From positions 12,314 to 76,313 of the forward strand of contig CAZPCW010000001.1 of NCBI GenBank assembly GCA_964585175.1: 64,000 nucleotides of DNA. Reading direction: 5' to 3'. Shown here in pieces: positions 18,137-39,879 of the stretch. Within the stretch, counting starts at the first letter, position 1. Each line of letters begins with the position of its first letter. Made by a program: the position numbers and the translations under genes. This DNA is from an uncultured Thermoplasmata archaeon (lineage in GTDB: Archaea; Thermoplasmatota; Thermoplasmata; Halarchaeoplasmatales; Halarchaeoplasmataceae). The notes below the pieces were generated by a model, which was given only the letters and a program-made list of their open reading frames with translations, had not been told where the DNA came from and searched no databases.

Positions 18137-18330
18137 GGTTATTATCTCCTTTCGGATACAGCATCGATAATCACCTTCCTTATTCATTATATATATTCGC
18201 TAGTGATTATCTCTCAGCGTAAATCAATCTTGATAACGGGAGTTGATAGTCTATGAAAACGAAGATTACTCTTATATATTGAAGAAGCCTGTAAAAAAGA
18301 TATAAAAAGAAAGGGTTTTTTTTCGGTTAT

Positions 18331-18933: not shown

Positions 18934-19225
18934 AGTTACTATCTCCTTTCGGATACTCTAGTTTAATCACCTTCCTAATTGATTATATAAATTCGGAACC
19001 AATTATCCTTTAAGTTTTCAAATATCAATTATATAAGGAGGTTATAACGATAAAGAATCACGCGCGTTTACAAACTATGTTTATTAAGCTAAAAAGTCAA
19101 TTGTAATTATCAAGCACAATAACATCGAGTAAACGCTTATATCTGATAAGAATATTAATTTAATAGTCTTAGCAGGCCTATTACAGATTACAACCCTTTT
19201 TTCCCTGAAGGCTATTATCTAGAGA

Positions 19226-19259
19226 GATAATCACGACATTAAATATAATATGATAATCG
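19226..19259 (+). promoter_or_regulatory. Promoter of the divergent arl accessory operon: TATA TTAAATATAATA (19239-19250) flanked by GATAATCAC (19226-19234) and TGATAATCG (19251-19259)
   Basis: The TATA box lies about 30 nt upstream of the ATG at 19275 (leaderless or short leader). The GATAATC core is the same as in the archaellin leader palindromes. Confidence 0.45.
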
Positions 19260-19274
19260 AAACTGTTTATCATA

Positions 19275-19952: not shown

Positions 19953-20014
19953 TAAGGAAGAGTTTAAATAAGGTTAGATATCAAATTTATATTTACGCGC
20001 GAAGGTGGTAAGAT

Positions 20015-23000: not shown

Positions 23001-23458
23001 AGCCAGAGTCGGAGATATCTGGTGATATAGCATCTGATAGTGATGTCCAGATCGAGAAAGATGTGAAAGTTGACGGATCTTTGAGTGCAGAAGAGGATAT
23101 CAAAATACACGAAAAAACTGAGATACAGGGAGATATAAAATCTGATTCTGGTGACGTAAATATAGGTGAAGAGTGTAAGGTGGGAGGAGAGATCAATGGA
23201 AAGAAAGTGTTAATCTCTAAAGGAAGTGAAGTGGAAGATATTGAAGCAGAAGAAAAAGTGATCTTGGAAGAAAATACGAAAGTGAATAAAGTTTTGTGTG
23301 AAGGTGACGTGAAGCTGTCAGAAAACGTCCAGATCGAAGAAGGAATTGAGTACGGTGGCCAATTACTATTTGAAGGAGATAAGATAAGTATCGGTGATCT
23401 GGTTCATCCGATAAATGAAGACGAAGAGGTGGTGAAAGAAAGATGGGCTTCTCAGTAG
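20015..23458 (+). CDS. Giant acidic multidomain protein: ArlC/D/E-like N-terminus, PQ-rich linker, DUF835-like (KaiC-lobe-like) domain, a long Glu-rich coiled coil of about 450 aa, and a bactofilin-like beta-helical C-terminus
   Basis: It occupies the position of arlCDE, between the archaellin-like gene and arlF. N-terminal coiled coil ending LLDVYEMVTAEFNPF, which I read as ArlD/E-family-like. A P/Q/E low-complexity block around 20580-20990. Block GLCLVRNHPDDIKDNYDMTGVEYGWLSSSGEDVAIGPDELDLLGLTIERFISEDDGIILLDGIGYLLSNNPESTVIHFIQSLQDQITVKSTIFLIVVDP, which I read as DUF835-like. An extremely E/K-rich region with heptad-like periodicity. C-terminal 150 aa built from the repeat D/E-V-x-I-x-G-D-I/V (SGDIASDSDVQIEKDVKVDGSLSAEEDIKIHEKTEIQGDIKSDSGDVNIGEECKVGGEINGKKVLISKGSEVEDIE...), which is bactofilin-like. 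The 3' end overlaps the arlF start by 16 nt. Confidence 0.55.
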   Translation: MVDFGKLLGKDKDEEEEDEAEEESEGDIDDIIDGDEGEGGMGPMGADMDEGEGIGPQGGGEGGMGVAPDVRDDIDRNRDDIREVENKVETMNDTVDDIEERVNDLEEDISQLLDVYEMVTAEFNPFLEEGGGLSGGGGSSEEGGGDDWDSMDFGGSPEEESEEESSEGSPLDELVEPPEEEQEEEAPEMPDIGSPGEEEAPEAPTETPPQDQSQEPKSPEPAQPETPQQPAQEQQAPPQTEQTQEPVQQPSTQQEESQQSPQPAQEQVQEPTQQPQTPTQEPQQPAQKQQTSPQQQPTPSQESKQPAQEPERSTEPQLSKEPGPVMEESVETMEEAPGGEITDAEELLDELEGGTMYLLESSDEDFPYEIFQALVKDRSGLCLVRNHPDDIKDNYDMTGVEYGWLSSSGEDVAIGPDELDLLGLTIERFISEDDGIILLDGIGYLLSNNPESTVIHFIQSLQDQITVKSTIFLIVVDPEDMEQKNIDLIKNELDLEVKKKEELSKDTGRSISGGEENLVSKVRRMMQFLEEQEKNLQERVDEINQKTIPEFSESMDSSVVKEAIEDLKKENRRLKEELDRLKEEESEEEIDTSPERAKDIKETMDLFKEEKETLEEIKELEEEEEVEEEVGEEPSAIIEAIQDLEEEIDKLKDEMKELKEGAPEESEIVEKEETIEGIDESLKGETEVEVEPEPEQEIKIEEPEESVEEESMDEITDIPGNIDEKVDVEIEEETGIEEEKEAEESGLPEIEEEETEELEVEEPGMEESEAEENKEEKTVEEKSEEKPEEETSILKEMIQGLEKEIDGLRNEIQDLKQGEEETEAIGEETGEKIEEIEEKDLASEAAEKAGEIVEEVEEELGEDMVDEDVQEESEEEEKEMEEVMEVIEKEEQLMEEPEKVKEKVGSEEVESPVQTEGSEEEKEEELESDHLTEDAEKGIEEDKEVMPEREEPIEESEKETEDKEIEPEKKEETVEEPKIDEKEEGTIYSEEEIQLEPESEISGDIASDSDVQIEKDVKVDGSLSAEEDIKIHEKTEIQGDIKSDSGDVNIGEECKVGGEINGKKVLISKGSEVEDIEAEEKVILEENTKVNKVLCEGDVKLSENVQIEEGIEYGGQLLFEGDKISIGDLVHPINEDEEVVKERWASQ

Positions 23459-24651
23459 CTGGTTCCGGCGGAATAATCTTTGTAGCTCTTATCGTTACCT
23501 TCTCTGCACTCTCAGGAGCTTTTTACTCCAGCATGGAGAACTTTGAAACTGAGATAAATGATAGTTCGGAAAGAAAGATATATCGGCAACAGACGGACAT
23601 CGAAATAAAGTCCGTAATGTATAATAGGACCAATAACCAGACGGTAATCAAAGTCAAAAATACCGGTTCAACTGTTTTGAACGCTACAAAAAGCGACGTC
23701 GTTCTAGACGGAGAAATCATAAACTCTGAAAATATAACCTTCGATAATGAAGAATATGAAGGTTATCATTGGCCGCCTGAAGAGGATTTGAAGATAAGAT
23801 TGAACGATGTAGACCTGGACTTTATACCGACCGTTAGCGAAAGAGTTGGTAATAAGGTTACGAAAGGAATAACCCTACCAGGTTCTATCAGTTCAAATTC
23901 AAATTATACATATGTTATAGAAGATGGAGATGTAGACGATAGAGGAAACATCTCGATATATGATTACAAAAATAATCTGATCAACACGATATCGGGAGGT
24001 ATCCTAGATAAAGCCACGGACCTCTCTTCTAATTACCAAAATCTTTTCGTTATCGATAATCAAAATCACGTAGACAAGTTTGATCTTGAAGGGGGTGGTG
24101 GAGTTGAACATATAACGAACGGAGAATTGACTTCACCTAAAGCAATATCGGTTACTGATGAAAATACTCAAGACTACATTTACATCTTAGATGATAACTC
24201 CCATGTAGATAGATTTAACCTGAACGGTTCCTATCATGATACTCCAGTGACAAACCTTGATGGCGTTATAGACATTTACGTCACGGACCATATCTACTTG
24301 GTTAATGAAACATCGAACAGTGTAGAAAGGTACTCTCTTGACGGCACCACACATAGCACTTTGATCTCGGGTGGAGAACTTTCTGATCCTAGTAATATTA
24401 CAGTGAGCGATCAGAACTTTGCTTCTCCACGAATATATGTCGTTGATTCTAGTTCTCATGTAGATGTGTTCGATACTGATGGGACCTTCATAAAGACGAT
24501 CGAAGAAGAAATGGGTAGTCAGTTGGGAGGTATAGATGTAGCAGGAAAGATATTCATCGGTAATGGATTGAACGGATGGTTCAGACTCAATCTTGGCCCT
24601 AAGTTAAAAGTAGTTCTTGAAAACGGAATAGCAGATTATGAAAGAATATAG
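23443..24651 (+). CDS. arlF: ArlF (FlaF)-like protein fused to a C-terminal NHL-repeat beta-propeller
   Basis: N-terminal TM plus FlaF/FlaG-family domain (MGFSVAGSGGIIFVALIVTFSALSGAFY...VIKVKNTGSTVLNATKSDVVLDG), homologous to the ArlG next door (VYVKNTGSTRMNMTDVKILVNG). Repeated NHL-like blades follow: LFVIDNQNHVDKFDLEGGG, IYILDDNSHVDRFNLNGSY, IYLVNETSNSVERYSLDGT, IYVVDSSSHVDVFDTDGTF. Confidence 0.6.
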   Translation: MGFSVAGSGGIIFVALIVTFSALSGAFYSSMENFETEINDSSERKIYRQQTDIEIKSVMYNRTNNQTVIKVKNTGSTVLNATKSDVVLDGEIINSENITFDNEEYEGYHWPPEEDLKIRLNDVDLDFIPTVSERVGNKVTKGITLPGSISSNSNYTYVIEDGDVDDRGNISIYDYKNNLINTISGGILDKATDLSSNYQNLFVIDNQNHVDKFDLEGGGGVEHITNGELTSPKAISVTDENTQDYIYILDDNSHVDRFNLNGSYHDTPVTNLDGVIDIYVTDHIYLVNETSNSVERYSLDGTTHSTLISGGELSDPSNITVSDQNFASPRIYVVDSSSHVDVFDTDGTFIKTIEEEMGSQLGGIDVAGKIFIGNGLNGWFRLNLGPKLKVVLENGIADYERI

Positions 24652-24663
24652 GAGGTAAAAAAT

Positions 24664-25101
24664 ATGGGATTCTCTATATCGAGTTCGCACTTGGTCTTTT
24701 TCTTGGCCTCGATGGTAGTGGCATCTACGCTAGCAGGAGTATTTATCACTTCTACCGATACTATTTCCAACGCGATAAGATCAAGAGAGGACTCGTTGAG
24801 CGAAAGGATGAAAAGCGATATCTCTATAATCAATGACCCAAACAATATGCCGAACGATCCATTGACAGTATATGTAAAAAATACCGGTTCGACAAGGATG
24901 AATATGACTGATGTAAAGATACTTGTTAATGGAACGCTTCAACAGACTTCTTCCATCCAACTGGTAGATAGTGACGATAACTATTGGTCACCCACAGATG
25001 TTATAAAGGTGGAAGTAGATATTAATTTACCAGCTGGCGATCACTGGCTAAAAGTTGTGGCTTCTCACCAATCGGAAGATACCTTAGAATTCACTATATA
25101 A
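24664..25101 (+). CDS. arlG: ArlG (FlaG) archaellum stator/accessory protein
   Basis: 145 aa with N-terminal TM helix MGFSISSSHLVFFLASMVVASTLAGVFI and a FlaF/FlaG-family beta-sandwich region. Its position after arlF is canonical. Confidence 0.65.
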   Translation: MGFSISSSHLVFFLASMVVASTLAGVFITSTDTISNAIRSREDSLSERMKSDISIINDPNNMPNDPLTVYVKNTGSTRMNMTDVKILVNGTLQQTSSIQLVDSDDNYWSPTDVIKVEVDINLPAGDHWLKVVASHQSEDTLEFTI

Positions 25102-25113
25102 AAGGTGGTATAG

Positions 25114-25809
25114 ATGGTAGAGATTAGAGAGATAGATATACCTCGTGACGATCTCTCCGATATGCTCGGAGGAGGTTTCCCATCATCATCCCTTGGAATA
25201 ATTGAGGGTAGATACGGTACTGGAAAGTCAGTGTTCACTCAACGCTTAACGTATGGGTTTTTAGAAAATGGTTATCAGGTTTCAGTGATATCTACGGAGT
25301 TGACCGTAAAGGGATTCATCGAACAGATGGATTCCTTGGGGTACAAAATAACATCCTATCTCTTGAATCACGATCTGCTATTCATACCAATTTACGGAAT
25401 GCTTCAACAGGAGTCCTCTACAAATTACGTAGAAAAATTGATGAGTGGAGAAAAGATATTCGAATCTGATGTCATAGTGGTAGACACATTTTCGGCCCTA
25501 GTAAATAAAGATTCTAACCCTGAAGAGTCTTTGAAAAAGTTGGAAAGTTTCACACAGAGACTTTTAGCGCAGGGTAGAACTATTCTGTTGAATATCGAAT
25601 CAGGCCCTTCTTCTGAGAAACTGTTCCCCCCCTTCTATTCCTCCGCACACATGCTTTTTGAGATGGAGCTTAACCAGGTCGGTGGAACCGTCTCCCAGGA
25701 AATCAATATAAAAAGATTTGCTAAAGCTGGAGGCGGAGTTTCTAATAGCATCGCTTTTAGGGTCGAGCCTGGAATCGGATTTGTATTAGAAATCACATCG
25801 GTGGGATAA
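25114..25809 (+). CDS. arlH: ArlH (FlaH) KaiC/RecA-like ATPase
   Basis: Walker A motif GRYGTGKSVF, 231 aa, RecA/KaiC-like layout. Its position before arlI is canonical. Confidence 0.8.
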   Translation: MVEIREIDIPRDDLSDMLGGGFPSSSLGIIEGRYGTGKSVFTQRLTYGFLENGYQVSVISTELTVKGFIEQMDSLGYKITSYLLNHDLLFIPIYGMLQQESSTNYVEKLMSGEKIFESDVIVVDTFSALVNKDSNPEESLKKLESFTQRLLAQGRTILLNIESGPSSEKLFPPFYSSAHMLFEMELNQVGGTVSQEINIKRFAKAGGGVSNSIAFRVEPGIGFVLEITSVG

Positions 25810-25810
25810 G

Positions 25811-27460
25811 ATGTCTCCCGTACAGCAGCATGAAAGTTCATTGGCGCAAGCTAGAAAGAGGAACCCGCACCTTAATGAATATATCAAGGGGCTACAAAGT
25901 AGAGGCATCGACGTTCCTGTATTGAAAAATAGGGTGGATAGAGATCTAAAAGATCAAAACGAAGTGAATATAATATATCCTATAGGTGATCCTATCTTCG
26001 TCCACGTTTATGGGACCGAGAACAGTGGATACAATTACAACGGGATAGAACCTGAATTAGATACTGAAAGCAGGGAACTCCTTCAAGAAATACAGGATTT
26101 TATCTTTGAAAAAGCTGCTTTTGAAGACGTAAAAGACGATCCAGAAAAATTAAAAGATCTTATCGAAGAATCCGTTGAGGAATTCGTCGATAAGGAAACC
26201 AGTGGACTATTATTCAGCAGGGATATACCAAAAGAGAGGGTGAGAAGAGTAAAATACAGACTGATGAGAGATCTGGCTGATCTAGGACCTCTTGAACCTC
26301 TTATGAGAGATCCTTATATAGAAGATATTTACGTAGTTGGTTTAGAACCTATCAAACTCATCCATAAGATATTCGATGAGATGAAGACTAATCTACAATT
26401 CGAGACAATGGAGAAGCTCGATGAATATCTAGTCAATCTAGGGGATAGAGTCGACGTGGATGTGAACGCTTCGGATGCTGTATTTGACACTGCAATGCCA
26501 GATGGATCTAGACTTAATATAATATATCCCGAAGATATTTCGATAAAAGGACCCAGTTTTACGATAAGAAAGTTCGAAGAGACACCTCTTACAATGCCAC
26601 AGATAATTAAGTGGAATACATTCAGTCCGAGGATGGGTGCATACATGTGGCTAGCCATGGAGCATGGCATGTCTGTCATCGTTTCCGGAGAGACAGCTTC
26701 GGGTAAAACTACTACTTTTAACTCAATGTTACCATTCATTCCTCATAACAATAAGGTTTACTCGGTTGAAGATACGGCAGAAGTCCAACCCCCTCAAGAG
26801 ACTTGGCAGCAGATGATAATCAAAGAATCGGAAGACGAGCAGATATCTGTCGAATACTTTGACCTTATAAAGGCCGCTATGAGGAGTAGACCAGAGGCTC
26901 TCCTTGTGGGAGAGATCAGAGGTGAAGAAGGTAATATCGCTTTCCAGGCCATGCAGACCGGTGTACCCGTCATCTCCACTTTCCACGCAGCTTCAGTCCA
27001 CAAGTTAATACAGAGGATGAGTGGAGAACCGATAAACGTTCCTTTACACTTTTTCCCGAATCTTGATTTCGTCGTTATACAGCAGGCGGTTTATGTTGGT
27101 GGTGAATTTCTGAGAAGGATGTTAGCTCTAACCGAGATAACCGGTTACCTGAGAGAAGAAGACAGCGTAGAGGTCCGAGAGATATTTGGATGGGATCCTG
27201 TCAGTGACAGTTTCGACTTTAGAGGAAAATTTAACAGTCAGCTTTTAGAAGAAAAGATAGCTCCAAGGATGGGTTTTGATGATAAAAGAGACATATATTT
27301 GGAGCTGGAAAAAAGAGCCCAGATAATCAAAAACATGATCAGAGAAGATATATTGGGTTATGATGAGGTAATAGAGACACTAAGAAAATGGCATAGAGGA
27401 GGTATGGAATCTCTGCCTCCCCGTTTAAGAGTAAAAGATTCCCAGGTTAGCATAAAATAA
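25811..27460 (+). CDS. arlI: ArlI (FlaI) archaellum motor ATPase (type II/IV secretion ATPase family)
   Basis: Walker A motif SGETASGKTTTFNSMLPFIP, Asp box, His box (STFHAAS) and an N-terminal FlaI-specific domain. It lies immediately upstream of arlJ. Confidence 0.85.
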   Translation: MSPVQQHESSLAQARKRNPHLNEYIKGLQSRGIDVPVLKNRVDRDLKDQNEVNIIYPIGDPIFVHVYGTENSGYNYNGIEPELDTESRELLQEIQDFIFEKAAFEDVKDDPEKLKDLIEESVEEFVDKETSGLLFSRDIPKERVRRVKYRLMRDLADLGPLEPLMRDPYIEDIYVVGLEPIKLIHKIFDEMKTNLQFETMEKLDEYLVNLGDRVDVDVNASDAVFDTAMPDGSRLNIIYPEDISIKGPSFTIRKFEETPLTMPQIIKWNTFSPRMGAYMWLAMEHGMSVIVSGETASGKTTTFNSMLPFIPHNNKVYSVEDTAEVQPPQETWQQMIIKESEDEQISVEYFDLIKAAMRSRPEALLVGEIRGEEGNIAFQAMQTGVPVISTFHAASVHKLIQRMSGEPINVPLHFFPNLDFVVIQQAVYVGGEFLRRMLALTEITGYLREEDSVEVREIFGWDPVSDSFDFRGKFNSQLLEEKIAPRMGFDDKRDIYLELEKRAQIIKNMIREDILGYDEVIETLRKWHRGGMESLPPRLRVKDSQVSIK

Positions 27461-27475
27461 GTAATATGGGATAAT

Positions 27476-29134
27476 ATGGATATAGAAATATTAGAACATT
27501 ACCAGAAGATGGAGATGTCCTTTAGGGATTACATACTTGGAGGTTTACTTCCATCTATAGTTCTATTTATCCTTATTGTTTTCTTCCCTAGTTTGATATT
27601 TCCCGAAATCCTTCTAGAAGGATTCTTGATGTTTTTTACTCAATATGTTCTTCCTACGGTGATTCTAGTTCTAGCTATACTTTTCCCCATAATTATTAGA
27701 AAATTGAAAAAGGAGGAAATCGATTCTTATCTTCATCTATTTATCACATTCTTTTATGCGTTATCCACTTCTGCCGTATCTGAAGCGAGGATGATAAAAA
27801 AGCTCTCGGAAGTCGACGAATACGAATCTTTGGCAGATGAGATTAAAAAGGTCTATAGTAGAATGGAATACTGGGATATGCCTTTACCTGAAGCGGCGAG
27901 GGACGTTGCGGATGAAACACCCAGTGAAAGGTTATCAGACTTTTTAACCAGGCTCGCCCACTCGCAGGAAGCCGGAGAGAACATGACTACCTTTCTCGAA
28001 AAAGAGCATTCTGTAGTTATGAAGGATTATGAAACAGAGTATAGATCCGCACTCGAGACGCTCGATCTACTGAAGGAAGTCTTTATCGCACTGATGACTT
28101 CGACTCTATTTCTTTTAGTCTTCCTGAGCATCCTTCCGATCTTTAGCGGTACTTCGGCGATGCTGCTTTTAACGGGAGGATTAGTTGTATTCATAATAAC
28201 GGAGGTGATCATGGCCGTAGCCGTAAAAACCGTCATGCCAAATGATCCCATTTGGCATCAATTAAATAGAAGACCTCCTCTGACGAGTAAGCTAAAAAAA
28301 GTAATACCCGCCTGTGTAGTGGGAGCTGTAGTACTTTTCTTTGTATTGGTATCCTACATACAATTAGATATATTTTGGATAGTCGCTATTTCACTGAGTC
28401 CTTTCATAGCCCCGGGTTTGATGATATATTTCTCTGAAAAGGAATTGAAAAGGTCTGATAATAACTACGATGCGTTCATGAGAGCTATAGCGAGTAGTAT
28501 CGCGATGAAAGGAGGAAGTGTAGAGAACGCTTTACAAAAACTGAGGCAGTACGATTTCGGACCACTAACTGAAGAGATCGAAAAACTATACAAAAGGTTG
28601 CTGACTAGGATCGACGAAGAAAAAGCTTGGAGATTTTTCGCTTCTGGTACTGGAAGCAATCTTATAGCCACTTTTACGAACATATATAACGGTTCGACAG
28701 ATTTAGGTGCCAATGTCAGAGATGTCAGCGATATAATCTCAGACACGTTCGTTAGAATCCTTTCTTTGAGAAAAGATAGATATCAGCAGGCTTCCGGCAT
28801 GATAGGGATCTTTTATGGGTTGGGCCTTGGTGCCGCACTGACTCTTACTTTGACCTTGAACATATCGGTTATGATGAACGATTCGATCGGGATGGTCACT
28901 CAAACATCAGAATTTTCAAACATTCTGCACCAAGTTCAATACAGCCCTCAGATGATCCAAATATTTATCCTGGCTGCGATACTTGTACACGCCATATTTG
29001 CTTCTCTCTCTTTGGTGATGTCTGCAGGTAGTCATAAGCTGTCGATCCTTTACCACACCGTAGGTATGACCTGGATAGGAGTCGTTTCCTCTTTGATCGC
29101 TCGTTCGGTAATGAGCGGACTTATTGGGGTGTGA
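27476..29134 (+). CDS. arlJ: ArlJ (FlaJ) archaellum platform membrane protein (TadC/GspF family)
   Basis: 552 aa, polytopic (multiple long hydrophobic segments), two cytoplasmic domains. Its position after arlI is canonical. Confidence 0.75.
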   Translation: MDIEILEHYQKMEMSFRDYILGGLLPSIVLFILIVFFPSLIFPEILLEGFLMFFTQYVLPTVILVLAILFPIIIRKLKKEEIDSYLHLFITFFYALSTSAVSEARMIKKLSEVDEYESLADEIKKVYSRMEYWDMPLPEAARDVADETPSERLSDFLTRLAHSQEAGENMTTFLEKEHSVVMKDYETEYRSALETLDLLKEVFIALMTSTLFLLVFLSILPIFSGTSAMLLLTGGLVVFIITEVIMAVAVKTVMPNDPIWHQLNRRPPLTSKLKKVIPACVVGAVVLFFVLVSYIQLDIFWIVAISLSPFIAPGLMIYFSEKELKRSDNNYDAFMRAIASSIAMKGGSVENALQKLRQYDFGPLTEEIEKLYKRLLTRIDEEKAWRFFASGTGSNLIATFTNIYNGSTDLGANVRDVSDIISDTFVRILSLRKDRYQQASGMIGIFYGLGLGAALTLTLTLNISVMMNDSIGMVTQTSEFSNILHQVQYSPQMIQIFILAAILVHAIFASLSLVMSAGSHKLSILYHTVGMTWIGVVSSLIARSVMSGLIGV

Positions 29135-29140
29135 TCATAG

Positions 29141-30751
29141 ATGGAGAGGAAGTTAAAAGCCCATATGAAAAAAAATCCCTTTTTAGGGAGCTACATAAAA
29201 AGGGTCAGAAGAGAAGTAGGTGTGCCAAAATTTAGAGAGGAATGTCCAGATTGGGGAGACGTGAGGGATGATTTCAATATAATGTATCCCATAACAGATC
29301 TAGTTTATATCCATTGTTACGTTTCCGAGGACGAAGAGAAGCATTATATCGCGGTAGAACCCCCACTAAATGAAGAAAGGCAGGAAAAACTTGAGAAGGC
29401 TAAGAAGTATATCTATAGAGAGGCGGATTACGAGAAGGAGATCGAATACAGAGAAGAATTGAGGGAAATGATCCATGATATTTTTGACAGGATCGTGGGT
29501 GAAGGAGGAGGTTTCTTTTCGAAACTCCAAGGTAGGACATTAGACGTAGATGATGATGAGATACCTATCTTGAAATATTATGTTGTGAGAGACCTAGTAG
29601 ATTATGGAGTTCTTGATCCACTGATCAACGATCCTAATATCGAAGATATAAATTGTGTGGGAACAGAGCCTCTTACTATTATTCACCAAACATTTGGAAG
29701 GATAAAAACGAACATCTCATTTGACTCTGAATTTGAATTAGATGAATATCTGAAAAGACTAAGCCAAAGAATAGGCAGTCCGGTCGGTGAAGCTCATCCC
29801 ATCGTGGATACGGCTATGCCGGACGGATCTAGAATAAACATCGTTTATCCAGAAGATGTTTCTACCAAAGGCAGATCATTCACGATACGAAAATTTCCAG
29901 ATGATCCTATCTCTATAACCAATCTTATTGAATGGAATACTTTATCCCCAGAATTGGCTGGATATATATGGCTCTGTTTGGAAAACTCCATGTCCATCTT
30001 CATATGCGGAGAAACAGCTTCGGGTAAAACAACTACTCTGAACGCTTTTCTCCCTTTCATACACCTTGATAGTAAACTTTACAGCGTGGAAGACACCCCT
30101 GAAGTGCAGCCACCACACGATAATTGGCAGCAACTCATAGTCAGAGAAGAGGGAGCAGAAGATGAGCAGGTCGGTCAGTTCGATCTTTTGAGAGCAGCCC
30201 TCCGTTCAAGGCCAGATTATATAGTTCCCAGTGAGATAAGAGGAGAAGAAGGTAGAGTGGCGTTTCAGGGCATGCAGACAGGCCATCCTGTCATATCGAC
30301 TTTCCATGCCGACTCCATACACAGGATGATCCAGCGACTAACCGGCGAGCCTATCAGGATCCCGATAACTTTCATAGATAATCTGAACGTAGCGGTGATA
30401 CAAGACAGCTTTAGAACCAAAGGGGCCGTTTTGAGAAGAGTAACTGAGGTTGGAGAGATCATGGGTTACTCTGAAGAACAGGATGGAGTGATGATGAGGG
30501 TGGTATTCAAAAGAAATGAACAGGAAGATGAGCTGGAATTCGAAGGTATGTACAACAGCTTTATTCTAGAGGATAAGATCGCACAGATCCAAGGTTACGA
30601 CGATACTAGAAAAATCTACGATGTGATGGAAGAAAGAGCCCAGTTCTTAGAAGATCTCACGAGAAAAGGTATCTACGATTACGATAAGGTGGCGCAGCTG
30701 ATAGACGAATACAGGAAAGGCGGTAGAGAAAATCTTTCAATAAGGCTTTAA
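29141..30751 (+). CDS. Second ArlI/FlaI-like secretion-family ATPase (paralog)
   Basis: Walker A motif CGETASGKTTTLNAFLPFI, His box STFHADS, and the same domain order as ArlI (about 45% identity by eye: MYPITDLVYIHCY against IYPIGDPIFVHVY). It sits 7 nt after arlJ with no adjacent second TadC-like gene. Confidence 0.7.
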   Translation: MERKLKAHMKKNPFLGSYIKRVRREVGVPKFREECPDWGDVRDDFNIMYPITDLVYIHCYVSEDEEKHYIAVEPPLNEERQEKLEKAKKYIYREADYEKEIEYREELREMIHDIFDRIVGEGGGFFSKLQGRTLDVDDDEIPILKYYVVRDLVDYGVLDPLINDPNIEDINCVGTEPLTIIHQTFGRIKTNISFDSEFELDEYLKRLSQRIGSPVGEAHPIVDTAMPDGSRINIVYPEDVSTKGRSFTIRKFPDDPISITNLIEWNTLSPELAGYIWLCLENSMSIFICGETASGKTTTLNAFLPFIHLDSKLYSVEDTPEVQPPHDNWQQLIVREEGAEDEQVGQFDLLRAALRSRPDYIVPSEIRGEEGRVAFQGMQTGHPVISTFHADSIHRMIQRLTGEPIRIPITFIDNLNVAVIQDSFRTKGAVLRRVTEVGEIMGYSEEQDGVMMRVVFKRNEQEDELEFEGMYNSFILEDKIAQIQGYDDTRKIYDVMEERAQFLEDLTRKGIYDYDKVAQLIDEYRKGGRENLSIRL

Positions 30752-30775
30752 AAATCGCTTATCGGCTTCTCTCCC

Positions 30776-31651
30776 TCATTTATTATATTGATTTTCTAAG
30801 TAATTTATATTAGAATAGATATCTTCAATACGAGCTTCAGTCAAACCGATCAAAGGTCGTAAAATCAGAGTGTCTATTTCTTTTTTAGAGAAATTTGGTA
30901 ATCTTTCTCCGAGAACTATCGCCTCGATCTCTTCGGGCAGATCCTTATCTAGCATCTCCTTTAAACTAGAAACTTCTTCCTTTCTCAGATTCGGATCCCA
31001 TCTCTCTAATTTATTACCCCACTTAGGATCGCTAAAATAAACGTATGGTCTCGCACCTCTTTTCATCATCAACCATGTTGCGATTAAATCCGTTCTATCA
31101 TCTACATATGCGGCTACTTTACCCTGAGAACTTAAAGGCAAACCGCCTGGTCCATTTTTCCCGTTCTTGATTATATATGCCCTGTTGTGTCTTATCTCTA
31201 TTTTGAACTTGTGATCAGGTTCATCTAGGTTTACTTCTAACTCCGGATTTTCTTTTAGAATCAAGGCCCCTAGCTCTTCTTCTATATCTTGGCTACCAAA
31301 TTCGTGATCTCCTACCCTTTTGACTCTGACAGCGAATTGACCGTCGATATCATCTGCAAATCTTTCAGCTTCTTCTTTGATTTTTCTTAAATCCGCTTCG
31401 ATAGATTCTATTTCTTCACATTTACTATAAGAGACGACTCCGAATATTCTAGAGAAGAATCCGGCGTTTTTTTCCTGCGTATAAGCAAATATCCTTCCAT
31501 GATGGCGTCCCTCCACAATCACTTCTTTATCTCTAGAAAGAAAAGTTCTCTCTATGTTTTGTATCAATATATTTTTAAAATCCTTACGAATCCTAGGGCT
31601 TTTCGTTCCGAGTTCTCCGTAACGAATCAGATATAACTGAAAATCACTCAT
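30776..31651 (-). CDS. ThiI-like THUMP-domain protein with a degenerate PP-loop (short paralog of tRNA 4-thiouridine synthase)
   Basis: N-terminal ferredoxin-like plus THUMP region (LIRYGELGTKSPRIRKDFKNILIQNI). The C-terminal half aligns to the ThiI adenylation domain (LMMKRGARPYVYF, LILRPLIGLTE). At the SGGxDS PP-loop position the nucleotides at 31090-31140 read GKVAAYVDDRTDLIA. Only 291 aa. Confidence 0.55.
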   Translation of the reverse strand: MSDFQLYLIRYGELGTKSPRIRKDFKNILIQNIERTFLSRDKEVIVEGRHHGRIFAYTQEKNAGFFSRIFGVVSYSKCEEIESIEADLRKIKEEAERFADDIDGQFAVRVKRVGDHEFGSQDIEEELGALILKENPELEVNLDEPDHKFKIEIRHNRAYIIKNGKNGPGGLPLSSQGKVAAYVDDRTDLIATWLMMKRGARPYVYFSDPKWGNKLERWDPNLRKEEVSSLKEMLDKDLPEEIEAIVLGERLPNFSKKEIDTLILRPLIGLTEARIEDIYSNINYLENQYNK

Positions 31652-31670
31652 GTATATCTTTCCTTTTGAA

Positions 31671-32192
31671 TCACCAGCTGCCTTCGTGTATCAATTCTTC
31701 TGCACTCATCTTTTCAGGAGAAGTTGGTTCTTCTGTCGGATACCCGACAGGTATCATTGTTACCGGTCTAACTCCCGCAGGAATTTTAAGCTGATCCGCC
31801 ACTTTTTCTTCCTCAAAGGCCCCTACCCAAACTGCGGCATAACCTTTGTCGACTACGGCTAAGAGCATATTTTCTACCGCAGCGCTAGCGTCCTGTATAG
31901 AATACAGTTCTCTTCCTCTATCTCCATATCTTTCCGCAGATCTTTCTTTATTGGCACAAACCACTATCACCCATGCAGCTTCGCCGATAAACGATTGCCC
32001 GTGAGCATTTTTTACTAACTTTTGCTTTTCTTTCTCATCTCCAACGAGAATAAAATCTCTAGCCTGAAGATTACCAGCGGAAGGGGCCATATGTCCCAGC
32101 TCGATGATCTCTTCGATATCCTCTTTAGGAATATCTTTTTCTTTGAAACTCCTCACGCTTCGTCTCTTCTTGACCACTTCCCTAAACTCCAT
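31671..32192 (-). CDS. Nitroreductase-family NAD(P)H-flavin oxidoreductase
   Basis: RRSVRSFKEKDIPKEDIEEIIELGHMAPSAGNLQARDFILV. The likely start is MEFREV at 32190-32192, which abuts the flavodoxin stop; the track start at 32240 is over-extended. Confidence 0.7.
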   Translation of the reverse strand: MEFREVVKKRRSVRSFKEKDIPKEDIEEIIELGHMAPSAGNLQARDFILVGDEKEKQKLVKNAHGQSFIGEAAWVIVVCANKERSAERYGDRGRELYSIQDASAAVENMLLAVVDKGYAAVWVGAFEEEKVADQLKIPAGVRPVTMIPVGYPTEEPTSPEKMSAEELIHEGSW

Positions 32193-32744: not shown

Positions 32745-33740
32745 TCACTCTTCTCTTTTTTTCTCCTCAAGTTCACAAAGTAGATCAACTATTTCCTCGG
32801 ATTTTTCCTTTTCTAGGGAGACCTCTTCATCATAAAACCCAGATTTTTTTTCTCCCACAAATTGACCGATATTAGTCAATTTTAGGATTATATCCTCTGT
32901 TTTGATCACCTTTTTTTCTTCCAACCTCGTGATAATGCTTTTAAACCTCTCCAAATCCAGGTTGAGGGTCTCAGCTATCTTAGTAGCCAAAAATTGGTTA
33001 CCGCTCTCAAGAGAATTCAAAATTTTTACGACTTTCAATTCCTTTTGATTTAAAGTAGGGATCTTTTGTTCTTCTCTCAAGAAGCAACTCTCAAAGTACT
33101 GTAAAATCATCGAGACTGAAGTATTGACGGGATATATCACATCCACTATCACTTCATCTTCGTTCTCGTTTTCCCCGTCTTCGTAATATATTTTTAAAGA
33201 GTTTTTACCCTTCAGTTCCTCAGTAGCCACGAACAAAATCTTCTTTCGGGGGATCGCTAAAAGTCTATTGTCTTCTCCAAGTATCTGAACGTGCTCTGTA
33301 CCCTTACCTCTATATTTTCCTTCTTTCCATTCTTTATCCTTATTTACCTTTTCTCCGACTTGATATTTTGTTATGTAATTAATCTTGGCACCCGACATTA
33401 TTTGCCTTAAAATAGTTCTTTTAAGCTTTCTTTTAGAAGAAGTTTTTATCAACGCTAGATATCCGCCGTCGGAGGTCATGAAATTAAATGTCAATACGTT
33501 GTGTTCCCTAGCTTTCAAAAAGTTTATCTGACGATCGAGGTAAAAAATTGAGTTCAATTCGATCCTTTTGGTCTCTTCCTTCGTTTCATATATAAGTTTA
33601 TCTGGGGTGAGATATATCTTGGAAGGTGTCCATTCTTTTTCTTTGTAAAAATCCTCTTCAACTTCATTGATAGTTCCCGCAGGTATGATCGCTTGTACTT
33701 CCTCCTCAAACTGAACATTTCTTCTACCTATATTAAACAC
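32745..33740 (-). CDS. CheF-like protein (archaea-specific che/archaellum adaptor family, DUF439-like), paralog A
   Basis: Co-linear homology with the two tandem genes at 38957 and 39880: AIIPAG..., (K)IYLT/YLVYK, LIKTS.K..LKRTIL, ...KDKEW.KG, IYYED/IRYEKDDEE, and a C-terminal winged-helix-like region. It is co-operonic with a PAS-HK, a REC and a CheB-methylesterase domain protein. Confidence 0.5.
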   Translation of the reverse strand: MFNIGRRNVQFEEEVQAIIPAGTINEVEEDFYKEKEWTPSKIYLTPDKLIYETKEETKRIELNSIFYLDRQINFLKAREHNVLTFNFMTSDGGYLALIKTSSKRKLKRTILRQIMSGAKINYITKYQVGEKVNKDKEWKEGKYRGKGTEHVQILGEDNRLLAIPRKKILFVATEELKGKNSLKIYYEDGENENEDEVIVDVIYPVNTSVSMILQYFESCFLREEQKIPTLNQKELKVVKILNSLESGNQFLATKIAETLNLDLERFKSIITRLEEKKVIKTEDIILKLTNIGQFVGEKKSGFYDEEVSLEKEKSEEIVDLLCELEEKKREE

Positions 33741-33747
33741 CTCAGAA

Positions 33748-34320
33748 TCACTTCTTAAACAATTCTATAAGTTTAGCTCTGATACCTTCGGGTTTTAAGA
33801 TAAACTCCACACTGCCGGTATCTATAGCACCCTCGGGCATATGTGATATTATCGCGGAAGAGACTTTTTGTGCTATAGTGGTGCCTCCAATGCTGTCTAT
33901 ATGCTCAATACCTTCGATACCGTCATGCCCTATCCCGCTCAGTAAGATGCCTACATACTCATGATCCTTTTTTATATCTAAACTTTTCATCACCCCGTCT
34001 ATAGAAGGACAAGCAAAACTTTCTTTAGGACATTTGGAAAAAGAAATTTTAGAGTTATCTTTTATATCGAGTTGCTTTTTCGAAGGTGCAATATAGATCG
34101 TTCCGCTTGACAAGCGTTCGTCCTCCGCAAGTTTCACTTCCATTTTCGTGAGACTGTTGATCCTTTTTACCATACCTTCGTTTAGCTGTTTAGACATGTG
34201 CTGAACGATTATTATAGCCGCGTCTAACTCGGGCAGATGGGAGAATATAACTTTTAAAGCGTTGGGTCCCCCAGTCCCGGAACCTATAACTACTATATTT
34301 TTGCACAATTCAGACGACAT
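33748..34320 (-). CDS. Standalone CheB-type methylesterase catalytic domain (no receiver domain)
   Basis: VVIGSGTGGPNALKVIFSHLPELDAAIIIVQHMSKQL, IYIAP, CPSIDGVM, LSGIGHDGIEGIEHIDSIGGTTIAQ. The Ser-His-Asp triad positions are present. 190 aa. Confidence 0.75.
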   Translation of the reverse strand: MSSELCKNIVVIGSGTGGPNALKVIFSHLPELDAAIIIVQHMSKQLNEGMVKRINSLTKMEVKLAEDERLSSGTIYIAPSKKQLDIKDNSKISFSKCPKESFACPSIDGVMKSLDIKKDHEYVGILLSGIGHDGIEGIEHIDSIGGTTIAQKVSSAIISHMPEGAIDTGSVEFILKPEGIRAKLIELFKK

Positions 34321-34327
34321 ATTTTCA

Positions 34328-34702
34328 TTATTCCATATATTTCCAATATTCCGAGATCTTTTCTTTTATTTCTTCACTAGTTACTGGTTTCCGGATATAA
34401 TCTATAACGTACTTTTGAAGATCCTTTCTATTTTCAGCCGGTGAATCCTTTGCCGTGAGCATCGATATCACAATATTCTGCATGTCAAATCTGTCCGCGA
34501 TCCCTCGAACCGTCTCCCATCCGTCCATATCGGGCATCATCACGTCCATCAATATTATACCTTCAAAACCTTCGTCTAAAGTATCCAAACATTCTTTTCC
34601 GCTCTCTACCGTTATCACTTCTAAATCCTCGTCTTCCAATATCCTCTCTAAAGTATAGAGGAGGTGAGGATCATCATCCACGATCATGATTTTTCTATCC
34701 AT
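34328..34702 (-). CDS. Single-domain response regulator (REC)
   Basis: KIMIVDDDPHLL...GIILMDVMMPDMDGWETV...YIRKPV is a CheY-like receiver fold with the phospho-acceptor Asp in MDVMMP. Its stop is adjacent to the HK start. Confidence 0.8.
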   Translation of the reverse strand: MDRKIMIVDDDPHLLYTLERILEDEDLEVITVESGKECLDTLDEGFEGIILMDVMMPDMDGWETVRGIADRFDMQNIVISMLTAKDSPAENRKDLQKYVIDYIRKPVTSEEIKEKISEYWKYME

Positions 34703-36163: not shown

Positions 36164-36302
36164 GATTAGCTTCCCCCGGCCTTTAATTCTTTATCTCTAC
36201 TCTTCTTTATAAAGGTAACTTTTTCATAAACAGGGGTTAGTAAATTTCAGTTTCTGAAAAGTTACAGGAACTTTTTTTTAGTTTCTCTCTTATGACCGTT
36301 TA

Positions 36303-38873: not shown

Positions 38874-38956
38874 ATTATGAATATCTAATCGTTGGGATTA
38901 AATAGTAAATGAATCATGATATATATTGTAATTGATAGATGATGAGGTATAACTAG

Positions 38957-39826: not shown

Positions 39827-39879
39827 GATTATATTTATGAAAAGTTTCATTATGAATACCAAAATGAAGAGGGAAAAAA

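Follow-up and report, generated by a model that had tools for sequence, protein, structure and literature searches.

Two ArlI ATPases flank a single arlJ in one archaellum operon

The archaellum operon analyzed here carries two intact genes for the hexameric ATPase ArlI, one on either side of a single platform gene, arlJ, and both products are true members of the ArlI family. From the sequences, we consider it about an even chance that the two paralogs are subfunctionalized parts of one archaellum machine, sharing one ArlJ, one ArlH, and one stator/switch set, probably as a mixed ArlI-1/ArlI-2 ring on ArlJ.

Within the window (the whole 64-kb stretch of DNA that was analyzed), the archaellum operon is a single unit on the plus strand, spanning positions 19275 to 30751, with the gene order arlB, arlC/DUF835/bactofilin, arlF, arlG, arlH, arlI-1, arlJ, and arlI-2. 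The first gene is the archaellin gene arlB (19275 to 19952; Pfam Arch_flagellin, E = 8.8e-24), followed by a 1,147-residue ArlC-like fusion (20015 to 23458) of FlaC_arch, DUF835, and bactofilin domains (Pfam PF05377, PF05763, and PF04519), which fills the slot normally taken by arlC/D/E and is also found in the related loci L071 and L073. The arlF-like gene (23443 to 24651) encodes a long product of 402 residues, whose match to the NCBIfam ArlF model is confined to residues 1 to 129 and scores 95 bits, below the cutoff of 110. The NCBIfam models for ArlG and ArlH recognized arlG (24664 to 25101) with 122.7 bits (cutoff, 110) and arlH (25114 to 25809) with 231 bits (cutoff, 215), the latter being the single tblastn match and the sole KaiC-like archaellum gene of the window.

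Downstream of arlH lie the arlH-proximal paralog arlI-1 (25811 to 27460; 549 residues), arlJ (27476 to 29134; 552 residues), and the distal paralog arlI-2 (29141 to 30751; 536 residues), the last gene of the operon, with gaps of 1, 15, and 6 nucleotides from arlH to arlI-2. ArlJ was identified by Pfam T2SSF and aligned over its full length to the NCBIfam ArlJ model NF004704, despite a score of 517 bits that is below the cutoff of 550; it is the sole platform match by tblastn in the window. The TGA stop codon of arlJ ends at 29134 and is followed by six bases (TCATAG) and the ATG of arlI-2 at 29141, 7 nucleotides past the last stop base; a Shine-Dalgarno-like GGGGTG is located within the 3' end of arlJ, ahead of arlI-2. 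These coordinates agree exactly with the earlier note, which had placed a second full-length FlaI-like ATPase of 536 residues 7 nucleotides past arlJ. Its observation that no second platform gene is adjacent could be extended, since tblastn and Pfam scans of the long open reading frames checked (from a list of those of at least 150 residues) revealed no further T2SSF platform, T2SSE ATPase, or KaiC/ArlH-like gene in the 64 kb. The gene downstream of arlI-2 is convergent (30776 to 31651, minus strand).

The surroundings of the operon were also evaluated. Seven archaellin genes, divergent from the operon, are located on the minus strand between 12249 and 18933 (12249 to 12851, 14314 to 14769, 15146 to 15760, 15941 to 16531, 16712 to 17308, 17546 to 18187, and 18331 to 18933), with Pfam Arch_flagellin E values from 1e-9 to 1e-32; the match of the gene at 14314 to 14769 is truncated at the N terminus. 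Together with arlB, these bring the archaellin genes of the window to eight, in two divergent sets. Pfam matches to chemotaxis genes adjoin the operon (32745 to 45145) and comprise three CheF paralogs, CheW, CheR, CheA, CheB, and a stand-alone CheB methylesterase domain, indicating that the locus is part of a chemotactic swimming apparatus.

Both ATPases belong to the ArlI family

ArlI-1 and ArlI-2 share 44% identity over 540 residues. Both passed the NCBIfam FlaI/ArlI equivalog NF058587 (cutoff, 550 bits), with 640.2 and 660.1 bits, respectively, while the next-best family, BasE, reached 162 and 202 bits (cutoff, 1,000). Matches to pilT_fam were limited to the P-loop core and scored 62.9 bits for ArlI-1 and 54.4 bits for ArlI-2 (cutoff, 319); on the remaining models, ArlI-2 scored 134 bits for TadA (cutoff, 373) and 110 bits for VirB11. 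The profile matches included no curated ATPase model for UpsE/AapE, and the comparison with pili rests on BasE, TadA, GspE, CpaF, and PilT. Both proteins are approximately 540 residues long and contain the FlaI N-terminal domain, whereas PilT and PilU have approximately 350 residues and lack the long N-terminal domain, which places the two paralogs outside the PilT/PilU group.

Structural comparisons gave the same picture. In a phmmer search against the PDB, residues 44 to 530 of ArlI-2 aligned to residues 29 to 504 of FlaI (E = 1e-107), and both phmmer and Foldseek ranked FlaI best for this protein, with AfGspE (2OAP) and CpaF lower. The AlphaFold model of ArlI-2 (pLDDT, 87.0) matched FlaI 4IHQ best, with a TM score of 0.84 to 0.88, and that of ArlI-1 (pLDDT, 86.4) matched FlaI 4II7 best, with a TM score of 0.80 to 0.87 (Foldseek). 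Both copies have the two-domain architecture of SaFlaI (4II7/4IHQ), in which a RecA-like C-terminal domain is joined to a variable N-terminal domain. In neighbor-joining (NJ) and maximum likelihood (ML) trees, both were nested within the euryarchaeal ArlI, with the crenarchaeal SaFlaI and the nonarchaellar AfGspE outside and AfGspE as the outgroup to all ArlI, ArlI-1 and ArlI-2 included. Such a phylogeny had been proposed in the earlier note, with a clustering of the second ATPase with pilus or Tad ATPases as the outcome against it; that outcome was not obtained.

ArlI-1 and ArlI-2 have diverged in complementary ways

Both copies carry the motifs GETASGKTT, which fits the Walker A pattern GxxxxGK[ST], SVEDT[AP]EV, (VG/PS)-E-IRG, DGSR, and TIRKF, and both keep the Walker A Lys, the Asp box, the catalytic Glu, both Arg fingers, and the second HIS-box His. 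In ArlI-1, Walker A is encoded at nucleotides 26687 to 26713, and the Walker B motif with the catalytic Glu (ALLVGEIRG; 26897 to 26923) is canonical, but the HIS box, MQTGVPVISTFHA (26951 to 26989), has Val in place of the first His. This change from TGH to TGV/I is found in 10/10 members of the ArlI-1 clade (TG[V/I]PV.STFHA), with the second His kept, while the first His of the HIS box (TGH......H) is found in 99% of the other ArlI sampled. The description of the first copy as a canonical arlI thus did not hold. As for ArlI-2, the motifs had been reported as intact, and this was confirmed for Walker A (GETASGKTT, residues 290 to 298; 30008 to 30034), the Asp box (SVEDTPEV), and the HIS box MQTGHPVISTFHA (TGHPVISTFHA; 30272 to 30310); the altered Walker B motif, YIVPSEIRG (30218 to 30244), had been overlooked. 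Members of the ArlI-2 clade exhibit YIVPS-E instead of hhhVG-E, with Ser replacing Gly in 11/11, whereas all 174 of the other ArlI sampled have this Gly (hhhhG-E). Two motifs of the ArlI-2 N-terminal domain are also altered, YPITDLVYIH (29285 to 29314) and GVLDPLINDPNIEDIN (29606 to 29653).

The extent of the divergence was measured over the 184 columns whose conservation reaches 90% or more among the 174 other ArlI. Members of the ArlI-1 clade deviate at 30 to 35 of these columns and those of the ArlI-2 clade at 24 to 35, compared with a mean of 4.1 and a maximum of 24 for the other ArlI. Between the two copies, identity is 38% in the N-terminal domain and 49% in the C-terminal domain, and ancestral motifs lost by one copy are kept by its partner, in both directions. 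Overall, these results indicate that, within a family that is otherwise very uniform, the two paralogs have changed in complementary ways and that both are derived, neither being a plain canonical ArlI.

The pair is conserved and under purifying selection

Eight related Thermoplasmata loci (L001 to L003 and L071 to L075) share the order arlH-arlI-1-arlJ-arlI-2, at identities from 95% down to approximately 60%. The dN/dS values against L001 were 0.026 for arlI-1, 0.008 for arlI-2, 0.023 for arlH, and 0.029 for arlJ; both arlI copies are under strong purifying selection across the lineage. Because the arrangement is conserved and selected in this way, we consider this a real archaellum locus with two ArlI and one ArlJ. 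In the ML placement, forcing ArlI-1 and ArlI-2 to be sisters was 19 to 32 lnL units worse, which suggests that neither is a recent duplicate of the other, and one of them could have come from a different lineage.

Two-ArlI operons recur in other uncultured lineages

Paired ArlI are not unique to this genome. While approximately 140 other arl loci fetched have one arlI each, two-ArlI operons occur in at least three further uncultured lineages (four with this one), either split (H-I-J-I') or in tandem (H-I-I'-J), and all eight paralogs from the four lineages pass the FlaI equivalog. As in the window, there are two ArlI equivalogs per ArlJ in L083/L084 (order G-H-Ia-J-Ib-KaiC-like), in L085 to L095 (F-G-H-I[TGI]-I'[TGH]-J), and in L104 (F-G-H-I-I'-J), the last two lineages differing by their tandem order. 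The organisms with two ArlI are uncultured lineages represented by MAGs. In one case, the pair clearly arose by tandem duplication within the lineage, the two copies being sisters at 93% bootstrap. Orthology of the TGI family to the window's pair is disfavored.

The first HIS-box His is gone from the arlH-adjacent copy in L083/L084 and L085 to L094, that is, in 2/3 of these lineages, but it is retained by the proximal copy of L104. In the L083 lineage, the proximal HIS box has changed from TGH to AGR, and the distal Walker A Thr is also replaced (GET to GES). The distal copies of L083 and L104 have a GES/GEA-ACGKTA Walker A and SLRR, whereas those of L085 to L095 are near canonical in sequence. 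In L083 and L102, the second ArlI is followed by a KaiC-domain gene, which is not ArlH by NCBIfam. Across the 260 ArlI, this His is absent in 34, which belong to the ArlI-1 clade (10), the "TGI" family (23), and P0139 (1), with no others. Wherever the context of a His-less ArlI is known, its gene immediately follows arlH, and the operon has a second ArlI copy that retains the His (L083/L084 and L085 to L094). Three further candidate pairs give weaker support for this pairing of His-less and His-bearing copies.

A mixed ring as the preferred mechanism

The mechanism that we prefer is one in which the same motor would need both subfunctionalized copies and a mixed ArlI-1/ArlI-2 ring would dock on ArlJ. 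In the active site of a PilT-like ATPase, the Walker A loop is packed against the HIS box of the neighboring chain. An alternating ring would therefore have two classes of sites. The ArlI-1 site, with canonical Walker A and Walker B, would meet the intact HIS box of ArlI-2 and stay canonical, whereas the ArlI-2 site, with its Walker B Gly changed to Ser, would meet the altered HIS box of ArlI-1 and be modified on both sides. The outcome would be three standard and three specialized sites, an arrangement that could split filament assembly from rotation or switching, tasks that are normally combined in a single ArlI. In PilB, cooperativity between chains is mediated by Thr and His of the HIS box, which touch the Walker A Thr of the neighboring chain (PMC5424180). 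If extrapolated from this bacterial protein to ArlI, the two replacements in the L083 lineage, TGH to AGR and GET to GES, would be the two sides of the same contact.

Duplicated hexameric ATPases of type IV filament systems are considered to form heterohexamers by default (PMC6711533); since ArlI-1 and ArlI-2 do not appear to be recent duplicates, this argument is weaker for the present pair. An alternating ring would also be C3 symmetric, whereas the best-supported PilB-like cycle is C2, although C3 structures of FlaI exist (PMC5424180). Other observations that point away from a mixed ring are the first His of the L104 proximal copy and the nonsister placement of ArlI-1 and ArlI-2, and the KaiC-domain gene behind the second ArlI of L083 and L102 could hint at two separate ATPase modules. 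More tentatively, and with a chance well short of even, the ring could be an obligate asymmetric heterohexamer similar to the alpha3-beta3 assembly of F1/V1, in which three canonical sites and three remodeled ones (ArlI-2 Walker B Ser plus the His-less HIS box of ArlI-1) split assembly from rotation, or clockwise from counterclockwise rotation; on this view, uncultured Thermoplasmatota-related archaea would have evolved it at least twice, losing the same His convergently in the arlH-proximal copy.

Two separate homohexamers might instead dock in turn on the same ArlJ, one for assembly and the other for rotation, or one for each rotation direction, which we regard as possible but rather doubtful. 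Core catalytic residues are found in both copies, and each could be an autonomous ATPase. The greatest difference between them lies in the N-terminal domain, which is proposed to face ArlJ (PMC6011876); as members of nonsister clades, they need not have inherited a common interface. Paralogous extension and retraction ATPases provide a bacterial precedent, with PilB and PilT exchanging on PilC in type IVa pili, and it has been speculated that FlaI assembles the filament in its C2 state and rotates it in its C3 state (PMC5424180). The KaiC-domain genes of L083 and L102 would also fit two homohexamers, but they are not ArlH equivalogs, and the window has a single ArlH. Furthermore, the two arlI genes are co-transcribed and closely linked within a single operon, or next to each other in lineages with the tandem order, whereas pilB and pilT are usually at separate loci. 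Finally, the first HIS-box His is lost only in the company of a His-bearing partner, for which trans complementation in one ring is the simpler explanation.

It is improbable that one copy is instead a partly redundant, condition-specific "ecoparalog" for different archaellins, or a catalytically weakened regulatory duplicate, without being an obligatory part of the motor. The two divergent archaellin sets fit this possibility, archaellin ecoparalogs are known in Haloarcula (PMC10117864), and the changes in the ArlI-1 HIS box and the ArlI-2 Walker B could each reduce ATPase activity. Nevertheless, differential expression is unlikely within the same operon, and ArlI has no direct contact with archaellins in current models. 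Moreover, dN/dS values on par with those of arlH and arlJ are not expected of a dispensable duplicate, nor is a pair retained down to approximately 60% identity, with pairs in four lineages. Least probable of all, by a wide margin of our own estimate, is that ArlI-2 belongs to another type IV filament system (pilus, Tad, or bindosome) whose platform gene is elsewhere. Additional type IV pilus loci are usual in archaea (PMC4858521), and the only adjacent platform gene is arlJ; against this, the profile scores (660 bits for ArlI versus 202, 134, 110, and 54 for BasE, TadA, VirB11, and PilT), the fold matches, the trees, and the constant position after arlJ in the eight related loci rule out a misplaced pilus or Tad ATPase.

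Comparison with known systems and implications

According to reviews and a primary paper of 2025, the archaellum has a single ATPase, ArlI (PMC12448462 and PMC6711533), and two ATPases are, as the earlier note anticipated, unusual for an archaellum. The canonical operon of Sulfolobus acidocaldarius, Pyrococcus furiosus, Haloferax volcanii, and Methanococcus (arl1-type arlB-C-D/E-F-G-H-I-J) contains the same families in the same order from arlB to arlJ, with ArlH, ArlI, and ArlJ likewise recognizable by curated models and ArlI sharing the two-domain FlaI fold and core catalytic motifs. The present operon differs by the extra full-length ArlI after arlJ and by the FlaC-DUF835-bactofilin fusion in the ArlD/E slot, and neither of its ArlI copies has the full invariant residue set (HIS-box His in ArlI-1; Walker B Gly and N-terminal motifs in ArlI-2).

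Several PilT-like hexameric ATPase paralogs per platform are also found in the bacterial type IVa pilus (PilB for extension, PilT/PilU for retraction, and PilC), for which subfunctionalization of a bifunctional ancestor has been proposed and heterohexamers have been discussed (PMC6711533). Here, in contrast, both paralogs are ArlI type, full length, and encoded in one operon, and the machine rotates rather than retracts. Among archaea, the CdiP pilus operon of Cuniculiplasma divulgatum (Thermoplasmatales) also encodes two paralogous ATPases, CdiPE1 and CdiPE2, which its authors consider unique and enigmatic in function (ISME J 2025, PMC12448462); the platform of CdiP is split and the system is an Aap-like adhesion pilus, whereas the present locus encodes an archaellum. 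More than one ArlI is likewise found in genomes with two complete archaellum loci, such as Methanosarcina (fla2A/fla2B), Methanococcoides burtonii (fla1 and fla2), and Thermoplasmatales archaeon ex4484_6 (L081 and L082). There, the ArlI are at separate loci, each accompanied by a dedicated ArlH and ArlJ, whereas here one ArlH and one ArlJ are common to two ArlI.

How a single hexameric ATPase, ArlI, can build the archaellum filament and afterward turn it both ways is a central open question. Bacterial type IV pili divide extension and retraction between paralogs, while archaella are described as single-ATPase machines; two-ArlI loci will be described incompletely by annotation pipelines and MacSyFinder-type models in which an archaellum has one ATPase. 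Lineages with two diverged ArlI on one ArlJ represent a natural experiment in subfunctionalization, in which the positions changed or kept in each copy point to residues that may serve separable functions, such as the first His of the HIS box, the Walker B Gly, the YPxGDP and LEPLxRDPY motifs of the N-terminal domain, and the DNLN motif.

Results

A single plus-strand operon carries two arlI genes around one arlJ. The ORF list and profile scans delimit one archaellum operon on the plus strand of the window, at 19275-30751. It begins with the archaellin gene arlB (19275-19952, Arch_flagellin profile) and continues, on the same strand and by profile scans, with a gene for a 1147-aa FlaC/DUF835/bactofilin fusion (20015-23458), a long arlF-like gene (402 aa, 23443-24651), arlG (24664-25101), arlH (25114-25809), arlI-1 (549 aa, 25811-27460), arlJ (552 aa, 27476-29134), and arlI-2 (536 aa, 29141-30751). 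Six bases separate the arlJ stop codon from the start of arlI-2, a GGGGTG run lies within the arlJ 3' end ahead of arlI-2, and the gene downstream of arlI-2 is convergent. An intrinsic-terminator scan of 18900-31800 detected no terminator-like hairpin between arlJ and arlI-2, and a sigma-70 scan of the same interval returned 34 sites versus 28 expected, its consensus being bacterial and not applicable to archaea. The ORF list agrees with the coordinates, lengths, and spacing in an earlier note on this DNA, which had remarked on ArlJ lying between two ArlI/FlaI-family ATPases with no second platform gene adjacent. The latter statement holds for the whole 64 kb, where tblastn with ArlH, ArlI, and ArlJ and Pfam scans of long ORFs found no second platform gene, further T2SSE ATPase, or second KaiC/ArlH-like gene.

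The surroundings are a motility island. Upstream, divergent from the operon, are seven archaellin genes (12249-18933, minus strand, Arch_flagellin profile), bringing the total in the window to eight; one of them (14314-14769, minus strand) matches the model only from profile position 48 and may have a truncated N terminus. Among them lies a VapB-antitoxin-like ORF (13553-14047, plus strand). A chemotaxis set identified with Pfam (32745-45145, mixed strands) comprises CheW, CheR, CheA, CheB, and three CheF paralogs flanking the archaellum operon (32745-33740, minus strand; 38957-39826 and 39880-40743, plus strand). CheF is the adaptor linking CheY to the archaellum switch. Besides a full CheB (44096-45145, minus strand), a CheB methylesterase domain stands alone, without a receiver (33748-34320, minus strand).

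Within the operon, the arlC/arlD/arlE slot is filled by the 1147-aa protein, which has FlaC_arch (aa 80-126), DUF835 (aa 363-493), and C-terminal bactofilin (aa 1013-1116) domains and no Arch_fla_DE match in Pfam. The same combination occurs in the related loci L071 and L073, and base composition is strongly skewed in this region (GC skew +0.38 and AT skew +0.37 at 22001-24000). A tie between this fusion and the possession of two ArlI was rejected, since the two-ArlI locus L083 has ordinary FlaC and FlaD-E genes. In the ArlF-like protein (23443-24651, plus strand), aa 1-129 alone match the ArlF model of about 137 positions (95 bits, cutoff 110); the remaining 270 or so residues have no family match, and the length is kept in relatives (390-403 aa in L071, L073, and L074).

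Both ATPases are ArlI. The NCBI equivalog for the archaellum motor ATPase, NF058587, gave 640 bits for ArlI-1 and 660 bits for ArlI-2 (cutoff 550), and other secretion-ATPase models scored far lower for both, each under its own cutoff; for ArlI-2 these were BasE at 202 (cutoff 1000), TadA at 134, VirB11 at 110, and PilT at 54 bits. By sequence, the top PDB match of ArlI-2 was Sulfolobus acidocaldarius FlaI (E=1e-107, residues 44-530), with Archaeoglobus fulgidus GspE and CpaF behind. AlphaFold models built with alignments were confident (pLDDT 87.0 and pTM 0.77 for ArlI-2; 86.4 and 0.76 for ArlI-1), and Foldseek ranked FlaI chains first for both, with TM scores up to 0.88 (ArlI-2) and 0.87 (ArlI-1). 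In a neighbor-joining tree of 197 sequences rooted on A. fulgidus GspE, crenarchaeal S. acidocaldarius FlaI branches first and both window copies, which are 44% identical to each other, fall among euryarchaeal ArlI. No exact match to ArlI-2 is on record; the nearest is protein cluster P0001, a 528-aa call from a downstream start codon that is 100% identical.

The two copies are conserved together. Close relatives of ArlI-1 (P0121-P0129) are at least 62% identical and those of ArlI-2 (P0001-P0010) at least 59%; outside the two clades identity drops to 46-51%, typical of any euryarchaeal ArlI. The order arlH, arlI-1, arlJ, arlI-2 was found in 8/8 loci recovered for these clades (L001-L003, GTDB genomes labelled "uncultured Thermoplasmata archaeon," and L071-L075). 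Identity to the orthologs in L001, L002/L003, and L074 declines in parallel for the four genes: 95, 84, and 75% for ArlH; 95, 85, and 75% for ArlI-1; 95, 81, and 71% for ArlI-2; and 87, 75, and 66% for ArlJ. Rough dN/dS estimates against L001, with dS near saturation, were 0.026 for arlI-1, 0.008 for arlI-2, 0.023 for arlH, and 0.029 for arlJ. Clearly, arlI-1 and arlI-2 are both under strong constraint. Proteins of both clades are also very acidic (mean net charge about -25 for ArlI-1 and -23 for ArlI-2, versus about -4 for the remaining aligned ArlI), which suggests an acidified proteome and possibly a salt-adapted organism.

The two copies diverge in complementary ways. At 184 columns at least 90% conserved in 174 other ArlI, members of the ArlI-1 clade deviate at 30-35 and those of the ArlI-2 clade at 24-35, versus a mean of 4.1 and a maximum of 24 for other ArlI. 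Since S. acidocaldarius FlaI deviates at 31, each paralog is as derived as the protein of another phylum. The changes are fixed in each clade and largely complementary. ArlI-1 keeps the N-terminal YPxGDPxFxH motif, the GPxEPLxRDPYIEDI segment, the Walker B hhhVG-E, and the Trp of the FeWdp motif, which in ArlI-2 become YP(I/V)(T/S)D(L)VYxH, G.LDPLLND.NIEDI, YIVPS-E (11/11), and Arg, respectively. Conversely, ArlI-2 keeps the ERxGxPVS..P segment, the first HIS-box His, and the DNLN motif; the first of these is changed in ArlI-1, and the others become TG(V/I) instead of TGH (10/10) and PNLD. The TR of TRexG is (I/V)K in ArlI-1, and in ArlI-2 the Arg is kept and Thr is replaced by Val, as in ArlI-1. 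In S. acidocaldarius FlaI numbering, the paralog-specific substitutions fall at P192, R307, Y331, H353, D384, N387, and G421 for ArlI-1 and at G37, P39, R135, Y138, H143, V334, G335, Y396, and W430 for ArlI-2; R135 and D384 are a possible inter-subunit pair. The Walker A Lys, Asp-box Glu, catalytic Glu, both arginine fingers, and second HIS-box His are retained in both copies. Thus, the Walker A, Asp, and HIS boxes of ArlI-2 are intact, as the earlier note had it, but its Walker B change had been overlooked, and the first copy, taken there as canonical, is itself non-canonical in its HIS box. Identity between the copies is 38% in the N-terminal domain versus 49% in the C-terminal domain. The "crown" region of FlaI has been proposed to bind ArlJ; its mean net charge (-7 in ArlI-1, -3 in ArlI-2, and -1 in other ArlI) has a large spread and is non-discriminating.

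Two-ArlI operons recur in other lineages. The contig of P0139, the neighbor of ArlI-1 in maximum-likelihood placement, led to a second lineage (L083 and L084), which is far more distant and shares this layout. Its order is arlG, arlH, Ia (P0139), arlJ, Ib, and a KaiC-domain gene, and its ArlH and ArlJ are only 39% identical to those of the window. In this lineage, the HIS box of Ia reads AGR instead of TGH, and Ib has an N-terminal YKVSDLVYVH motif resembling that of ArlI-2, a GESACGKTA Walker A, and SLRR instead of TIRK. Searching with Ib then identified a large ArlI family of 23 clusters with TGI in the HIS box, labelled as Thermoplasmata, Thermoplasmatota, or Methanobacteriota archaeon. Three candidate pairs of a TGI-type and a TGH-type ArlI (P0200/P0204, P0205/P0220, and P0225/P0228) are putatively co-located, as judged only from equal longest-contig sizes and matching motif types. 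With a TGI protein as seed, a metagenome scan yielded L085-L095, in which the copies are in tandem (arlF, arlG, arlH, ArlI with TGI, ArlI' with TGH, arlJ; the proximal copy of L094 has IGN instead of TGI). The same scan yielded L104, with the order F-G-H-I-I'-J, whose distal copy has GEAACGKTA and SIRR, as in Ib. The FlaI equivalog was passed by 8/8 paralogs of the four lineages (624-722 bits). The other approximately 140 arl loci examined, from Methanosarcinales, ANME-1, Chloroflexota, MGII-like contigs, and various Thermoplasmatota (among them L079, L080, and L096-L100, the closest outgroups), have one arlI each. The Thermoplasmatales MAG ex4484_6 also has two ArlI; unlike those of the window, they belong to two separate complete loci that each include an H and a J, a pattern already known. 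Overall, the two-ArlI arrangement is real and conserved, and it extends further than the earlier note saw.

Several further observations were made in these loci. A KaiC-like single-domain ATPase gene (242 aa) lies directly 3' of the distal ArlI in L083 (6469-7197), L084 (6636-7364), and L102 (1671-2171), all of the second lineage with split ArlI copies, and a similar gene lies upstream, amid archaellins, in L094 (1294-2040); in L083 its reading as a second ArlH was rejected, because its NCBIfam matches are generic archaeal KaiC models only. ArlI contigs labelled Chloroflexota or Dehalococcoidia (L056, L063, and L070, with a single arlI each) fit a recent publication on archaellum clusters transferred into Chloroflexota (PMC12488501). 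Metagenome contigs L150-L155 show an atypical layout: they carry a gene for an ArlI-like protein with 46% identity to P0213 (match over residues 16-510), no arlJ was detected beside it, and an ArlH-like gene lies some 2.3 kb downstream on the other strand. In Pfam scans, L073 encodes a 1825-aa protein (11154-16631) combining a class I tRNA-synthetase core, an anticodon-binding domain, and a C-terminal DUF835, and nearby a response regulator fused to DUF835; because of these fusions, DUF835 appears to be a recurring fusion module beside the archaellum locus. In L071, a ribonucleotide reductase large-subunit gene near the locus (20782-21611) contains an intein with a LAGLIDADG endonuclease domain.

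Loss of the first HIS-box histidine follows a rule. Among 260 ArlI, this position is His in 226 and another residue in 34, the latter being exactly the ArlI-1 clade (10), the TGI family (23), and P0139 (1). Wherever context is known, the His-less ArlI directly follows arlH in a two-ArlI operon and the other copy has the His. In this sample, the loss is tolerated only with a second, His-bearing ArlI present; the L104 proximal copy, which retains its first His, is an exception to the converse.

The pairs appear to have more than one origin. The TGI family and its tandem partner family are sister clades (bootstrap 100 for TGI, 99 for the partner, and 93 for their union) with 55-57% identity, and this pair seems to have arisen by tandem duplication within the lineage. 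Around the window's pair, the deep nodes were left unresolved by distance trees (neighbor-joining bootstraps of 16% for ArlI-1 with Ia, 0% for ArlI-2 with Ib, and 4% for ArlI-1 with ArlI-2), and a four-cluster site-pattern count (ArlI-1, ArlI-2, an MGII-like group, and the rest) resolved nothing, with 5, 3, and 2 sites. Maximum-likelihood placement scans (Gonnet-derived rate matrix, four gamma categories, fixed backbone, local branch optimisation only) put ArlI-1 best as sister of L083 Ia, with lnL lower by 8.2 at the next best position, 19.4 on the ArlI-2 stem, and 60.9 on the TGI stem. ArlI-2 was placed best as sister of the single-ArlI MGII-like group, with lnL lower by 4.1 when joined with P0234 and the L104 distal copy and by 31.9 on the ArlI-1 stem. 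Sister placement of the window copies is thus 19-32 lnL units worse, an informative difference, though short of a formal AU or SH test. These scans argue against a recent duplication as the source of ArlI-1 and ArlI-2, and for independence of the TGI duplication from the window's. The window, L083, and L104 lineages may have one old duplication in common, or one copy may have been gained by transfer.

Discussion

The operon combines two intact ArlI genes with one ArlJ and one ArlH, in co-oriented, tightly spaced genes; both ArlI are strongly constrained and diverge in complementary ways, and the pattern recurs in other lineages. We infer that both copies act on the same motor, with ancestral properties divided between them. 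We give an even chance to a cooperative motor with two ATPases, for which a mixed ring is the form we prefer. In closed interfaces of Geobacter metallireducens PilB, a HIS-box Thr sandwiched by two His touches the Walker A Thr of the neighboring chain, and the authors of that work conclude that cooperativity between chains is mediated by the HIS box (PMC5424180). If this contact is carried over to ArlI, in an alternating ring the ArlI-1 active site would stay canonical, completed by the intact HIS box of ArlI-2, and the Walker B Ser of ArlI-2 and the HIS-box Val/Ile of ArlI-1 would both lie in the other class of site. Both sides of the contact, itself extrapolated from PilB, are altered in the L083 lineage (Ia has AGR for TGH, and Ib has GES for GET). 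A mixed ring is further favored because the histidine rule is what complementation within one ring would predict, because operon adjacency and coupling fit a heteromer, and because co-assembly is expected by default of duplicated TFF ATPases (PMC6711533). However, the PilB contact would be an extrapolation to FlaI, an alternating ring would be C3-symmetric whereas the favored catalytic cycle is C2, and the two copies may not be recent duplicates.

As the main rival, two homohexamers could alternate on ArlJ, one for assembly and the other for rotation, or one for each direction of rotation. PilB/PilT provide a precedent, and the N-terminal domain, which published work on FlaI places towards ArlJ (PMC6011876), is the more diverged one; we regard this as possible, though doubtful, and the histidine rule speaks for the mixed ring. 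It is improbable that one copy is a redundant or regulatory duplicate, given the constraint on both genes. That arlI-2 encodes a foreign pilus ATPase is highly improbable: the clustering with pilus or Tad ATPases that the earlier note had named as the outcome against its reading was absent from the NF058587 (660 bits), PDB/Foldseek, and tree results.

Compared with an ordinary archaellum, every other component is ordinary, and the window differs in its paired motor ATPase. The earlier note considered two ATPases unusual for an archaellum, and a 2019 primer on TFF evolution gives ArlI as the sole archaellar ATPase and places ATPase duplication on the bacterial branch, "unlike the archaeal branch" (PMC6711533). 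According to a 2025 paper on filaments of Thermoplasmatales, the operons reported so far for archaeal pili and archaella contain a single ATPase gene (PMC12448462). Two arlI in one archaellum operon are not mentioned in the retrieved passages of an archaeal T4P census (PMC4858521), an archaellum phylogenomics paper (PMC1914349), a 2021 history review (PMC10117864), or a TFF diversification paper (PMC6668835). A full-text literature search found nothing relevant on such operons; most subscription journals lie outside its coverage, and absence there is no proof.

Two-ArlI operons, here from uncultured organisms, contradict the field's general statement of a single archaellar ATPase. Their interest lies in this contradiction, in the recurrence of the arrangement, where the arlH-proximal copy has repeatedly lost the same catalytic-site histidine, and in the concrete way they offer to study how assembly and rotation are combined in ArlI.
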